64,000 bases of DNA from Eledone cirrhosa (lineage: Eukaryota), in the NCBI GenBank assembly GCA_964016885.1, contig OZ024741.1, positions 365,366,001 to 365,430,000 on the forward strand, read 5' to 3'. Positions within the stretch are counted from its first letter, which is position 1, and every line of letters begins with the position of its first letter. Position numbers and translations under genes: made by a program. A model generated the notes under the pieces. The model was not told the DNA's origin and did not search any database. It worked only from the letters and a program-made list of their open reading frames with translations. Of the stretch, positions 1 to 64,000 are shown piece by piece.

Positions 1-562
1 ATATATATATATATATGTGTGTGTGTGTGTGTGTATATATATACACATACATACATACGCACACGCACGCACGCATGCACAAGCACATACACACAGACAA
101 ACACACACACATATATACATATATATATATATATGTATATGTATATATATATATGTATATATATATATATATATACATATATATATATATATATGTATAT
201 ATATATATGTATATATATATATATATATAAACTGAGTTTTTTTAATATTAATAACATTCGATTCCAAAGAGCTAGTGAAAATATATGCTATTTTCTAAAA
301 TATACAGTGACTGATTGGCCTGATTTGCATATTAGCAGATCCATTGATCAGCCAGATTTGCATATCAGCAGACTGGCAAGTCAGTTTCCTGTATACGAGT
401 GATAAATGTCCAACTTTGCCACATTCGAAAAAAAAAAGAAAGAATTTTCGAATAATAATAATAACATTCGATTCCTTTGCAATTATGCGAACAAGCTTCA
501 TTTTTAAAGCCATGTCAGTTGAATGAACCCTTTAATCTTGCTCTTGTGTTGGAATGTAAACA

Positions 563-612
563 GAACTGCAGACACAAATGTTTCTGGGTATCACCCTTCA
601 TCAGTACAACTC
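563..612 (-). ncRNA. Type I hammerhead ribozyme
   Basis: gagttgta CTGATGA agggtgataccca GAAAC atttgt GTC tgcagttc; stem I pairs fully (with G-U), stem III ACA/TGT, GUC site. Confidence 0.8.
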
Positions 613-1056
613 ACTGATCACCTGCCAACTGTCAGAGCTAGTGAAAATATATGCTATTTTCTAAAATATGCAGTGACTGTCGGCCTGATTTGCATATTAG
701 CAGACTGGCTGATCAGTCAGATCTGCATATTATCAGATCCACTGATCAGCTGATTTGCATATCAGCAGACTGGCCAGTCAGTTTCCTGTATACAAGTGAT
801 AAATGGCCGACTTTGCCACATTAAAAAAAAAAAAAAAAATGTTTCGCTCTACATGGCTGAATACAATAAATCTAATCTGAGTTTTTCGAATATTAATAAT
901 AACAAAAATGTTCGATCTACATGGCGGAATGGGTAATATGCAGATCTGACCGATCAGCCAGTCTGCTAATATGCAAATCAGGCCGATTATCACTGTATAT
1001 TTAAAAAAAAAATAGCATATATTTTCACTAGCTCTGACAGTTGGCAGGTGAACAGT

Positions 1057-1106
1057 GAGTTGTACTGATGAAGGGTGATACCCAGAAATATTAGTGTCTG
1101 CAGTTC
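1057..1106 (+). ncRNA. Type I hammerhead ribozyme (inverted copy of 563-612)
   Basis: gagttgta CTGATGA agggtgataccca GAAA tattagt GTC tgcagttc. Confidence 0.7.
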
Positions 1107-1371
1107 TGTTTATATGCCAACACAAGTGTAAGAATGAAGGGTTCATTCTACTGACATGGCTTTAAAAATGTGGCCTGTTCGCATAATTGCAAACGAATCG
1201 AATATTATTATTAATATTCGAAAATCTCATATCACATTTATTGTATTCAGTCATGAAGAGCGAATATTTATTTATATATATATATATATATATATATATA
1301 TATATATATATATATATATAAATTTTCGCTATTCATATATAGTTATGTAATAAACAACATAAGGCAATTAT

Positions 1372-1430
1372 TTCATTTACCAGTGGTTTCTTGAAAGCAA
1401 ACAAATTTTGCTTTCAATCATCAGAATGAA
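1372..1430 (-). ncRNA. Type I hammerhead ribozyme
   Basis: ttcatt CTGATGA ttgaaagcaaa..tttgctttcaa GAAAC cactg GTA aatgaa; perfect stem I and long stem II. Confidence 0.85.
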
Positions 1431-1740
1431 TACATCCTGAACTTCTTCTCTGCTCTCTACGCCTTACATCCACTACGATTTTTTTACCTTCTGAACTCAC
1501 TTTCTGTACTCTTATATTCTTTTTCTCCTCTATCTCCCCTTATATTTAAACCTTTTCCTATGTATTTATTTTCCCTATTCCCCCTACTTTATACCTTATC
1601 CTTTACATACCCACCTGTTTTAATTTTAGATATTTATTTCTGTGTGTGTGTGTGTGTGTCTGTGTGTGTGTGTGTGTGTGTGTGTGTGTGTGTGTGTGTG
1701 TGTGTGTGTTGGGCATATGTGTATATATGTATATATATAT

Positions 1741-2398
1741 ACCGCCAGAGATTCGATTTTACTGATTTCCAATTATATTATTCTCCTAGATTTAATAATT
1801 AACCAATTAATTTAATTAGACAATTCTGTTGATTGGTTAATTATTTGTGTTTGTTTTATAACATCTAGTTGAGAGCTTATCATGATGATTAGCGGAAATT
1901 AAAATATTTCCTTTCGCTAGCATTTTGAATGACCCATCTAAAACCGGGGGTTATTTCCCTTGCCGGAATTAACACGTGATAACTATAGATGCGATTAGCA
2001 GCCATATGGAGCAGCAACATATAATTTATCACTCCGGTCCTAGGCAGAACGAAATACCTGTTGATAAACTGAATCCTCTGTTCGATCACCAATACCATGA
2101 GCTTGCCATTCACGTAAGTCTGGTATTTGATTTCGGATTCAAAGAAACACATTAAACTATTGTTTGTTTGATTTGTCCAGGTGTACTTTTCTCAACCTGA
2201 TTAGTTCTATCGTTACTTTGGTATATATTGTGTGTTAGTTTCCCCTACCACGATGTTCGATTTGTCAAGTTATTTAAACGTATGTTATTACTCTGAGGTC
2301 CTATCTTATCGAGTGCTTTGCTAACTCATCATTTCATATAAGTAGGCCGAATTTACTTGCAAACCGCCAGAGATTCGATTTTACTGATTTCCAATTAT
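1741..2398 (+). mobile_element. Non-coding element with ~36-bp terminal direct repeat (unit ~622 nt) in (TA)n
   Basis: ACCGCCAGAGATTCGATTTTACTGATTTCCAATTATAT at 1741 and 2363; TA flanks. Confidence 0.6.
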
Positions 2399-3678
2399 AT
2401 ATATATATATATATATATATATATATATATATGTATGTATATGTATGTGTATATATAATTATATATATCTGTATGTATATGTATGTGTGTATATAATTGT
2501 ATTTTACATGCTTCTGTCGTATTTGTGTATATATATATATATATATATATATATGTGTGTGTGTGTGTGTGTTTATATTTGTGTGTGCGTATTTTTATTT
2601 AGGTGGTGACGTAACTTTTTGTAGATATGTGTATTTTTATATAATTGTTTATGTGTGTATATATATAATAGCCTCAGAAACGGCTTGATCTGTGCCGCCG
2701 CGGTCATACTTTTTCCTATATGTATATATATATATATATGTATATGTATGTATATGTATGTATATATGTGTGTATTTGTATGGTTGTGTGTGTGTATATA
2801 TATATATGTATATGTATATATGTATGTGTATGTATATGCATAATTACATACAGTGATTTAATGGTTATGATCATTTGCTTCAGGAACTTGTTGAGTGCTC
2901 TAAATCAGCTATAAACATTTATACCCTTTTCTAATTATTTATTTATTTATTATTTGTCGTATTCCCAACTATTTGTTTACCCCATTCACCTATTTATTTT
3001 TATATATATAATATTTATGTATTTTCTTATATATATGTGTGTGTGTGTGTGTGTATATATATATATATATATAATATATATATATATATATATATATATA
3101 TATATATATATATATATATATATATATATATATATGTATATATATATATGTATATATATATTTAAGAGTTAAACAAGGTTCAATGAATACATCTAAGAAT
3201 AAGTTTTACACACATACATGTGTGTGTATGTATTTATATATATGTGTGTGTATGTACGTGTGTATATATGTATGATTATGTGTATGTATATATATATAGA
3301 TAGATGTATATATATATATATATATATATATATATATATATATATATATATATATATATATATATACATGAGTGTGTGTGTGTGTGTTTGTGTATTTGTG
3401 TGTAGGTGTATGTATGAATATCTTGATATATATATGTGTATGTATGTATATGTATGTGTATTTGTACGTATATGTATATGTGTGTGTATGTATGTATATA
3501 TATATATGTGTATATGTATGTATATATATGTGTATGTATATATGTGTGTGTATGTAATTGTGTGTGTGTGTGTGCATGTGTGTTTATTTTTCCTTTCCTT
3601 CTTCCTTTTCCAGCCTTACTTTCATATAGATTATATTTTTGCTTTTAAAATCCAATGTCAATAAATACATCAGGATTT

Positions 3679-61815: not shown

Positions 61816-61851
61816 ATTTACCGGTTTCGCAGTTCTTCTGCTTTTCAAAAG
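61816..61851 (-). ncRNA. Hammerhead with U3-A8 variant core
   Basis: ctt TTGAAAA gcagaagaactgc GAAAC cg GTA aat. Confidence 0.55.
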
Positions 61852-62208
61852 TAGAGTTGAGATGGGGGGTCTGTGGTTTTTCTCACATCTCTATATATAT
61901 AGTGTTTCCGTAGGAAGGGTAAAGGAAAGGAGAGTGCTCTATTTAAGCTACAGAGCTATTTAGTTATATATAACTATATGTATATATACATATATATATA
62001 TATATATATATATATATATGTATGTGTGTGTGTGTGTGTGTGTGTGTGTGTGTGTGTGTGTGTGTGTGTGTGTGTGTGTGTGTGTGTGTGTGTGTGTGTG
62101 TATCCAGGGAATATAACGTGATGTTACTGTAGGTTCACCCAAGTGAACACTCGATGTTTAGGTTGACGTCAGTAGCGAGCTGTACAGCTAAACAGAGAGT
62201 AATATAAT

Positions 62209-62386
62209 AATTGTTTCTACTTTAGACACAAGGCCAGCAAATACCCAGTGCATTACTGGTACTTTATTTTATCGACCCCGTAAGGATGAAAGGCAAAGTC
62301 AACCTCGGCGGGATTTGAACGCAGATTGTAAAGGGACGTAACTATGCTGGAAAAAAGGCGTGCGACACTCTACCGATACTGCCAAT
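62209..62386 (-). mobile_element. tRNA-derived SINE
   Basis: Reverse complement of the 11721 family. Confidence 0.88.
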
Positions 62387-62727
62387 AATAATACAAAGAC
62401 GATTTATTAAGCCTTCATTACGTTTATTGATTGGTGACGTGCATTTCGCTATTGATCAGCTCAACGCTCGATCTGTATTGATCTCTATCGATATATACAC
62501 ACATATATATATATATGTGTGTGTGTGTGTGTGTGTGTGTGTGTGATTCCTTCGTTTTAAATTTTAAAATGTTTTGAAAGTGAGTTAATTTTGTTCATGT
62601 CACCTTAAATATATTCTAAATGTTTTCCCGGATAACTAGATTTTAATGGTGCAAATAAAAGAAAATTAAGAAAAACCAAATGTTTTCTTAGCATAGTGAG
62701 ATCATAAACGTAAATAAGATTTGCTTA

Positions 62728-62939
62728 ATTTTAGCCAATGATATCTCTATATTTTAGCCAATGATATCTCTATATTTTAGCCAATGATATCTCTATATTT
62801 TAGCCAATGATATCTCTATATTTTAGCCAATGATATCTCTATATTTTAGCCAATGATATCTCTATATTTTAGCCAATGATATCTCTATATTTTAGCCAAT
62901 GATATCTCTATATTTTAGCCAATGATATCTCTATATTTT
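62728..62939 (+). repeat. 23-bp minisatellite, 9 perfect copies
   Basis: Unit TTAGCCAATGATATCTCTATATT at 62731, 62754 ... 62915. Confidence 0.95.
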
Positions 62940-63731
62940 GTCAGACGTTAATGTGTCAATTACTGATGGTAAAGACACACTTTAAATTTGTTGCAAATTA
63001 AAACTAATATTGTTTTACAAGGATTCCGTAATAATCGTGTTGGAGAAGCAGATATAATGTAACTTGAGATCACAAGAGTAAACACAAGAGTAAATTAAAG
63101 AACGAAACAAAAAAAGATTACATTTTTGCCTTCCATGATATTTCGAGGTTACGACCTGCTTTACAAAAAGAAAAAAAAATAGTGTGGGGTTTGGCGATTA
63201 GTAGACATTTGGGTGACATGCGGAGATTGATGTACTCACAAAAGCCAATCGTCTTTATCCAATTCGCTTCTTATATTTATGACTGATCTCGATTTATTGT
63301 CTAGAAAAGTTTGTTCGCGTCTCCGGTTTACTGATGTTATAATTAACTTCAATATTCGTGTTGCAACATATTTGTCTACCTCTATATGCATTTGTGTGTG
63401 CATAGAACAACTACATTTGGTAATGGCGTCATTTTTCAATACTATGCACTCTTTCCATTTCATAAACTACTATGTTCATCGAAATGAATTTTGAAATTCT
63501 TTCTCTCACTCCCGCTCTCTCTCCACACGCACACACATGCGTAAATAAATAAATAAATATATATATATGCATATATCTATATATAATATATGTGTGTAAC
63601 ATTGCCTCCAGTGTTTTATTTGTTTCATTATTAACTATATATATATATATATACACACACACACATATATATATATATATATATATATATTATGATGTGA
63701 GAAAAACCACAGACCCTCCATCTCAACTCTA

Positions 63732-63767
63732 CTTTTGAAAAGCAGAAGAACTGCGAAACCAGTAAAG
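63732..63767 (+). ncRNA. Hammerhead with U3-A8 variant core (inverted copy of 61816)
   Basis: ctt TTGAAAA gcag aagaa ctgc GAAAC ca GTA aag; 63695-63843 is the reverse complement of 61740-61890. Confidence 0.65.
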
Positions 63768-64000
63768 GAACCAAATAAATATATATATTTAAAAAAAAAT
63801 AAGACTCCAGTTGCATTTTCGATTTCATCTTTTTTTCTTTATATATATCTATATATATCTATATACATATATATACTAGACATCAAAAATGCGCAAGCTC
63901 AAAAGTGCCACAGAATGTTATAATAAACCTTCAAAAGTGTGGGACTAGAGTTGTTGCTAAAAAATATTGTAATCATTATATATCGTACATTCTGTGGCAT

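Follow-up and report, generated by a model that had tools for sequence, protein, structure and literature searches.

Hammerhead-bearing insertions in the (TA)n tracts of Eledone cirrhosa: ends of Penelope-like elements and candidate retrozymes whose fold-backs are likely rebuilt at each insertion

Hammerhead ribozymes (HHRs) within the pseudo-long terminal repeats (pLTRs) of Penelope-like elements (PLEs) are already in print (PMC4209133), as are inverted pLTRs with tails, the targeting of (TA)n by PLEs of the Hydra clade, and retrozymes derived from PLEs; statements attributed to published work throughout refer to extracts of the papers named. Hydra-1_Obim is listed with a (TA)n preference and an HHR in the supplement of PMC8557442, and a 2026 repeat annotation of Octopus vulgaris reports recently active Penelope families, the word 'ribozyme' being absent from its main text in the extract available. 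Two questions are open in this literature: by what route the inverted ends of PLEs arise, and whether animal retrozymes are mobilised by PLEs. We have analyzed a stretch of 64,000 nucleotides from Eledone cirrhosa (the window: assembly GCA_964016885.1, contig OZ024741.1, positions 365,366,001 to 365,430,000, forward strand) that is rich in hammerhead motifs. We consider it probable that these elements are insertions into (TA)n of PLE pLTRs with their tails and of hammerhead units lacking an open reading frame (ORF), and that the fold-back arrangement is rebuilt each time by priming at both cut ends. The ORF-less units likely borrow PLE enzymes. Added here to what is in print are a young family (M), statistics on the arms of the fold-backs, and two pairs that join different families.

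The coding elements of the window identify the source of many of the hammerhead sequences. ORF remnants at 25635, 50799 and 55316 have a reverse transcriptase (RT) followed by a C-terminal GIY-YIG domain, with a CxCx5C linker, CxxC and CxH motifs near the end, and CCHH absent. RWR and DKT are present in the 25635 ORF and, by eye, in a parent of family A (locus L190), while this region is truncated away in the elements at 50799 and 55320. The marks of the Hydra clade stated in PMC8557442 (section 11) are RT then C-terminal GIY-YIG, an RWK-like motif, DKT, CxCx5C and no CCHH. Because the motifs match, the elements at 25476, 50799 and 55320 and the parents of families A and K are classified by these marks as Hydra-clade PLEs. 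The element ending at 54140 had been described as Naiad-like; its endonuclease is C-terminal, CCHH is absent at 50799-52576 and CxCx5C is present, which places it with Hydra instead. The element at 46841-49122 is Neptune/Nematis-like by its Cx4CxxC linker, an assignment from motif rather than from a tree.

Several hammerhead families run into such ORFs. When loci of family A were selected with sequence lying upstream of its pLTR, six of 30 proved to carry, within the 1.5-kb flank, a Hydra endonuclease that enters the pLTR, and one locus (L235) comprises pLTR A, a Hydra ORF and a second pLTR A, with an ATG ~17 nt past the end of the tail. The RT of L235 is ~70% identical to the RT at 51093 in the window, and the parent of A is therefore a sister of the 54140 element rather than that element itself. 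The preliminary description had matched the copies of A at 6365, 33348 and 60225 to the pLTR and tail of the 54140 element. That match is real but loose (74-85% identity), and the family's own parent lies in a sister Hydra subfamily. Long copies of family J carry an ORF for RT and GIY-YIG (matching RVT_1 and GIY-YIG in L234), all 40 scored tail matches are 100% identical, and the parent is a young autonomous PLE with RT and a CCHH GIY-YIG. For a stretch of the J ORF, a search of public sequencing runs listed no RNA run, which is neutral as to expression. Long copies of family K carry a Hydra ORF, and in L243 that ORF ends in K. A complete HHR with a long helix II is found in six of 15 fetched K loci, these being long copies; short copies begin in loop II and retain the GAAA..GUC half alone. 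Families A', D, F and H3 adjoin PLE ORFs in the window. We assign A, A', D, F, H3, J and K as the 3′ ends (pLTR plus tail) of protein-coding PLEs. The suspected link to PLEs is borne out by parent ORFs for these seven families, while the accompanying view that the whole set is non-autonomous fails for the same seven, which enter or directly precede PLE ORFs in longer copies. A, J and K are not closed ORF-less retrozyme units, since their long copies continue into PLE ORFs. A separate observation on J is a hammerhead-like fold with an altered core, TTGATGG (7030-7060, 7186-7215), within this young autonomous family.

Other families are units without an ORF. Units of family M follow one another at exactly 519 nt, or at about 514-522 nt in two of the arrays, which reach five or more units; copies are 97-99% identical, with at least 1,100 candidates in the genome. 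Its longest open frame is 71 amino acids and the HHR core is intact in 51 of 55. The 3′ ends of M lie at position 519 (with tail) or at ~451 (tail-less), nearly always at TA, and its 5′ ends are scattered. The closed unit of family E measures ~427 nt, carries a tail of 59 nt and passes the type-I descriptor, and N is a unit of ~296 nt with an intact HHR in L070; the window copies of E and N contain no ORF of 150 amino acids or more. As ORF-less tandem units with an HHR (PMC7229834; 10.64898/2026.07.22.740005), M, E and N fall within the definition, framed in terms of sequence, of non-LTR retrozymes (LTR, long terminal repeat). Family B (1464 genome candidates; spacing of 439 in L334) is probably also an ORF-less tandem unit, of ~440 nt, no joined ORF being seen in 19 loci. 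Of 19 loci of family G, about 17, as judged by eye, share one fixed 5′ end, and a parent was seen in none of the 19. The existence of retrozyme-like units is therefore upheld for M, E, N and probably B, with G a fixed-length orphan.

There are 24 cores of the form CTGANGA..GAAA in the window, compared with 4.9 ± 2.1 (maximum 10) in 30 local dinucleotide shuffles. Eleven of the 24 pass a full type-I descriptor (helices I, II and III and an NUH site), for which 50 shuffles average 0.04; others carry an extra base after A9, as do minimal HHRs in PMC4209133. Twenty lie within repeat families (four in A, one in A', two in B, two in C, one in D, three in E, three in F, and one each in G, H, H3 and M), and those at 27589, 44901, 51318 and 52436 are chance-like cores outside the families. 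With degenerate copies in E, N, J and K and at 4108 the window total is about 25-30, in agreement with the roughly 25 type-I motifs, some degenerate, first reported. In the assertion of at least ten unrelated families the word unrelated is too strong, since A/A', C/D and F/H are related pairs. An Rfam scan of the window gave no hammerhead match at the gathering score; among 150 of the 305 matches in a listing by E-value hammerheads were absent, the matches listed being just AT-hairpin microRNA (miRNA) noise. In 600 kb of the 3.0-Gb genome (60 evenly spaced stretches of 10 kb) the descriptor finds 33 matches (~55 per Mb), compared with none in five shuffles; at 172 per Mb, the window is roughly threefold richer than this sample. 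The motifs are type-I hammerheads by descriptor, with catalysis predicted.

The association with (TA)n is strong. At least four TA repeats lie at one end of 28 of the 29 elements listed in the window and at both ends of 19, where random intervals give 16% and 0.8%, a test that is partly circular as the element ends were set by eye. In genome loci anchored on the tail, the tail end is followed by (TA)≥4 in 21/28 for A, 26/28 for J and 27/29 for K, giving 74 of 85 against a background of 5% of sampled positions and 2/48 ends of a short interspersed nuclear element (SINE)-like control; the E row was not used as its query held a microsatellite, and the D row gave 0/4 with a mis-set end. This confirms that the elements sit in (TA)n. 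The families are also high-copy, as had been proposed. Genome searches return 550-4,000 first-look candidates per query as lower bounds, and most window families are found again in the 600-kb sample, with densities of 2-28 loci per Mb, 3 of 39 queries giving no match. The listed elements cover 42% of the window.

Could the insertions themselves have created or extended most of the tracts, which would then not be pre-existing targets? The tracts beside young copies are long and variable, and the PLE RT is related to telomerase. Against this, Hydra elements are reported with a (TA)n preference (PMC8557442), and different families stack in one tract, as in L300. We regard it as somewhat unlikely. 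A search for nested insertions that bear on whether TA tracts existed beforehand gave 16 cases, nearly all of a SINE-like repeat. That repeat, of ~190 nt (39626-39812; also 5107, 11720, 45219, 50521 and 62203), has 75 loci in the 600 kb, targets TAAT-rich sites and recurs at the same places in family A, including HHR helix III. A further TA-flanked family, S (61681-61901 and 63691-63843), has two fixed ends and ~8-10 copies per Mb, with no HHR seen.

Self-BLAST shows both the inverted and the partial-tandem layouts where they had been claimed, and the arms themselves reveal how they relate. Across 20 fold-backs of family A, divergence is 4.9% between the arms within one copy, compared with 7.6% between copies (0/100,000 permutations). 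Arms of different copies differ by 7.3-8.0%; left arms diverge from one another by 7.95% and from right arms by 7.6%, so that there is no left-arm lineage. Shared variants occur on both arms 40 times, where about 16 are expected, and private variants are found on one arm 85 times and on both nine times. We therefore conclude that both arms came from one source at insertion and diverged afterwards. Had all the families been independent non-autonomous retrozyme- or MITE-like RNAs (MITE, miniature inverted-repeat transposable element), with the fold-back as part of the mobile unit, the dominance of short copies in A and K (~26 of 30 K loci), their near-fixed ends, the fixed 5′ end of the parentless G and the ORF-less nature of M, E and N would all be accommodated. 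The parent ORFs of seven families and the left-arm comparison contradict it. Hairpin centres vary. Short and long A copies differ in their alleles, in a biased sample, but alleles common in the short copies recur in the long copies L084 and L096. This explanation is very doubtful, and the palindrome as a mobile unit is largely refuted: the arms are copy-specific, their lengths and centres vary, and one end is tailed, in disagreement with the MITE-like unit of the preliminary description.

Each family has two fixed 3′ ends, one on a tail-bearing arm and the other on a tail-less arm. Among 12 J pairs the tail-less arm is longer in four, the tail arm in two, and six are equal; in L249, a very young J copy, the tail-less arm is longer by more than 1.2 kb. 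For 14 clean M pairs, four further pairs with odd ends being excluded, the corresponding numbers are eight, four and two, and family A likewise has unequal arms (L236, L240 and L241). Head-to-head junctions often overlap by 2-11 nt. These data bear on whether the inverted arm arises by self-priming or copy-back on one template, with unequal arms created by later deletion at the palindrome centre. Such a process is argued for in PMC3846280, where an antisense template is proposed. It would account for the equal-armed half of the J pairs, some of them centred on natural palindromes, and for variants common to both arms. Copy-back is disfavoured because the sequence of one arm should then be wholly contained in the other, while each arm holds sequence absent from its partner, as in L249. 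In addition both outer ends are fixed and abut TA, and the two mixed-family pairs described below cannot come from it. We judge copy-back to be unlikely. That the palindromes are artefacts of assembly or library construction has practically negligible probability. Some J palindromes are 100% perfect, as such an origin could produce, but A arms differ by ~5%, which refutes it for A; outer ends are family-specific and fixed, and a strand-switch joint and the tail-less J end joined to TA are found in contigs of other public runs. Two copies of A have a third arm just upstream (L009 1363-1924 and G000:C22:24010919-24011506); that in L009 is set off by a short TA run and is possibly a separate insertion.

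Priming at both cut ends would account for these arrangements. The GIY-YIG endonuclease would nick both strands in AT-rich DNA. Of the two 3′-OH groups, one would prime RT at the end of the tail and its counterpart at a second start 30-87 nt upstream, usually on the same RNA. The two cDNAs would then be joined head-to-head, often with 1-11 nt of microhomology. M, E and N may stem from multimeric or circular RNA processed by the HHR, the copying of which would yield tandem units whose 5′ ends vary. The scheme agrees with in vitro work on a PLE protein: that of Anolis Poseidon cleaves and extends both strands at AT-rich sites, and its RT starts at two sites bracketing the tail, with internal initiation just downstream of the pLTR (PMC11167929).

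The shortest copies suggest where the RNA begins. In family A, 32 of 43 arms end within -7 to +4 nt of an initiator-like A (six are ambiguous and five clearly long). The corresponding number for K is 62 of 72, with four at +7/+8 and six long, and nine of 18 J arms end within -9 to 0. The initiator-like motif of A is TCACT, the same string as in the Adineta pLTR. We infer that the short A, K and J arms may be run-offs at an RNA 5′ end inside the pLTR, the start site being putative. The HHR cleavage site was considered as an alternative 5′ end. One A copy (L088) starts there, but the site is itself TATATA and therefore confounded, and we dropped it.

Most head-to-head junctions join like with like. 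In 1.55 Mb of fetched loci together with the window (loci L326-L365 not included) there are 164 same-family junctions and two mixed, one of J with M (L231) and the other of O with M (L284). Both have a 1-nt overlap, TA outside both ends, and tails on both arms. The involvement of M in both (2/18 compared with 0/148, Fisher p=0.011) and the presence of tails on both arms in both, compared with 0/18 same-family M pairs (p=0.005), are post hoc comparisons on query-selected loci. The mixed pairs are consistent with two RNAs being copied at one break, although a deletion between neighbouring insertions would look identical, and they do not prove that the J protein copied M. We tentatively suggest, at slightly less than even chances, that M is a recently active protein-free repeat integrated by PLE proteins at both cut ends, and that the mixed pairs record two RNAs in one break. 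If so, they would be direct genomic evidence of one integration reaction common to retrozymes and PLEs. Outside subscription journals and Repbase, we found no paper describing a mixed junction of a retrozyme with a PLE, or a retrozyme that has two fixed ends. A possible third mixed pair lies in the window at ~55320, where G abuts a D-type Hydra element head-to-head without an intervening TA tract.

A number of points weigh against the picture of ribozyme-bearing RNAs copied from both cut ends. The +1 positions were picked with the ends already known, initiator-like motifs occur frequently, and the sites at which A, K and J arms stop are all in or close to hairpins, which might cause RT to stall. 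Arms of unequal length might also result if a long palindrome, once inserted, lost sequence asymmetrically. The minimum-free-energy folds of several HHRs do not yield the hammerhead, and covariation in helix II of the A group is slight (TA/TA in 60/75, one compensated type in two). A published PLE HHR is dispensable for insertion in vitro (PMC11167929), and eight of nine Xenopus retrozyme dimers failed to cleave (10.64898/2026.07.22.740005). The search for a parent of M gave only ORF-less relatives, of 70-77% identity at two places, and no similarity to J was found. Finally, fetched loci are the best matches to window queries, so that ratios of long to short copies are biased.

The features of the window are collected in Table 1. 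The ends of family L at 5787-6124 enclose a 300-nt interior that is GC-rich and imperfectly palindromic, unlike the copy at 19012. There is also a decayed PLE at 11101-15795, with RT at 13978-15241, an Asn/Thr-rich N-terminal region, flanking inverted repeats (11101-11369 / 15486-15750) and no HHR core seen. Further repeats are a remnant of a Ty3/Gypsy-type LTR retrotransposon at 20658-23318 (-), with Pfam matches to RT, RNase H and an integrase zinc-finger; the 3′ end of an RTE-like long interspersed nuclear element at 37200-38040 (-), with a zinc-finger-like C-terminus by eye; and a perfect 23-bp minisatellite of 9.2 copies at 62728-62939.

Table 1. Elements of the window, with hammerhead cores given by position and strand (UTR, untranslated region).
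Feature	Coordinates	Strand	Description
Family B	230..1272	.	Head-to-head partial-tandem HHR element, cores 604-, 1065+; ORF-less, probable ~440-nt unit
Family C	1321..3840	.	Inverted HHR arm (1424-) and low-complexity 3′ UTR-like body ending in HHR 3685+; D-related
Family L	5787..6193	+	Short inverted ends and tail, no HHR seen; second copy 19012-19168
Family A fold-back	6370..6800	+	Tail-less inverted arm, arm and ~85-nt tail; cores 6467-, 6610+; Hydra-clade pLTR by assignment
Family J fold-back	6831..7369	-	250-bp arms, 38-nt tail; assigned 3′ end of young autonomous PLE
Family M	7439..8397	-	Partial dimer of 519-nt unit and inverted tail-less arm; HHR core 7794-
Family K relatives	16310-16428, 39174-39312, 41996-42148, 42187-42396		
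Family H	17309..17592	-	Short HHR element, core 17503-; 3′ end akin to F
Family N	17628..18353	.	ORF-less ~296-nt tandem unit and inverted arm; HHR degenerate here, intact in L070
Family K mini fold-back	18794..18984	+	Assigned 3′ end of Hydra PLE, second half of HHR alone
Family F	23460..24449	.	Truncated GIY-YIG C-terminus, 3′ UTR, HHR-like core 24151+, short inverted arm
Decayed Hydra-clade PLE H3	25476..30442	+	RWR, DKT, CxCx5C; ORF remnants 25635-28200; terminal HHR 30356+
Family E	30560..31753	.	ORF-less ~427-nt tandem unit, head-to-head, 59-nt tail; core 30725-
Family E, degenerate HHR copies	near 31164, 31435		Belong to the E element above; a second E element lies at 46095-46771
Family A long copy	33349..34599	-	3′ UTR, pLTR and tail; core 33541-
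Family F	46841..49122	+	5′-truncated Neptune/Nematis-like PLE (Cx4CxxC linker), inverted arm; cores 47077-, 48840+
5′-truncated Hydra-clade PLE	50799..54140	+	RT then GIY-YIG; ends in pLTR A', core 53953+
Family G	54722..55320	-	~600-nt HHR element, core 54925-; fixed 5′ end; head-to-head against D element
5′-truncated Hydra-clade PLE with pLTR D	55320..57765	+	Core 57595+
Family O/P fold-back	59941..60158	-	~85-nt tail, no HHR seen; pieces at 24556, 31900, 33107
A-group fold-back with deleted centre	60204..60445	+	Core 60316-
Family J mini fold-back	61524..61654	-	46-bp arms, 38-nt tail as in larger J copy

Our results suggest that a sizeable part of the microsatellite-embedded repeats of this genome are PLE ends, which could be mis-annotated as MITEs or miRNA hairpins. 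The presence of a young, near-identical retrozyme (M) beside a young, near-intact PLE (J), with start sites mapped, makes both of the questions raised at the outset testable in vitro.

Among described systems, the Naiad PLEs share the (TA)n bias and tandem and inverted insertions, but their endonuclease, with CCHH, is N-terminal and canonical HHRs are missing (PMC8557442), and the window elements do not fit them. Metazoan non-LTR retrozymes (PMC7229834; 10.64898/2026.07.22.740005) resemble the ORF-less units in being tandems of a few hundred nucleotides with a type-I HHR per unit, in low GC content, and in co-resident PLEs with mobilisation by PLEs proposed. The 519-nt unit of M exceeds the sizes of 150-450 nt given in PMC7229834 but lies within the 51-972 nt of 10.64898/2026.07.22.740005. 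Circles and cleavage have been shown for the retrozymes of other species in these two papers, whereas M, E and N are known from sequence alone. The two fixed 3′ ends, head-to-head arms and mixed junctions found here are not described in the extracts of either paper. Anolis Poseidon, which provides the biochemical precedent, belongs to a different clade, and the portion of PMC11167929 drawn on addresses neither the origin of inverted arms nor ORF-less templates.

The closest likeness is to the endonuclease-bearing (EN+) PLEs of the Hydra clade (PMC8557442), which have an HHR in the pLTR, (TA)n targets, partial tandems, an inverted 5′-truncated copy and a tail; for Hydra-1_Obim the likeness to the window families is by description, not by sequence comparison. 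The tails of that clade are stated to be 30-40 nt, while those of A and K are ~77-87 nt. In addition, pLTR-only fold-backs dominate two families here, and short K copies start inside loop II of the HHR. Penelope insertions of Adineta (PMC3846280) likewise have an inverted pLTR, an optional tail, solo pLTRs, TCACT in the pLTR and palindromes at junctions. Self-priming was proposed for Adineta, whereas the asymmetry of the arms in Eledone cirrhosa favours two target-primed cDNAs.

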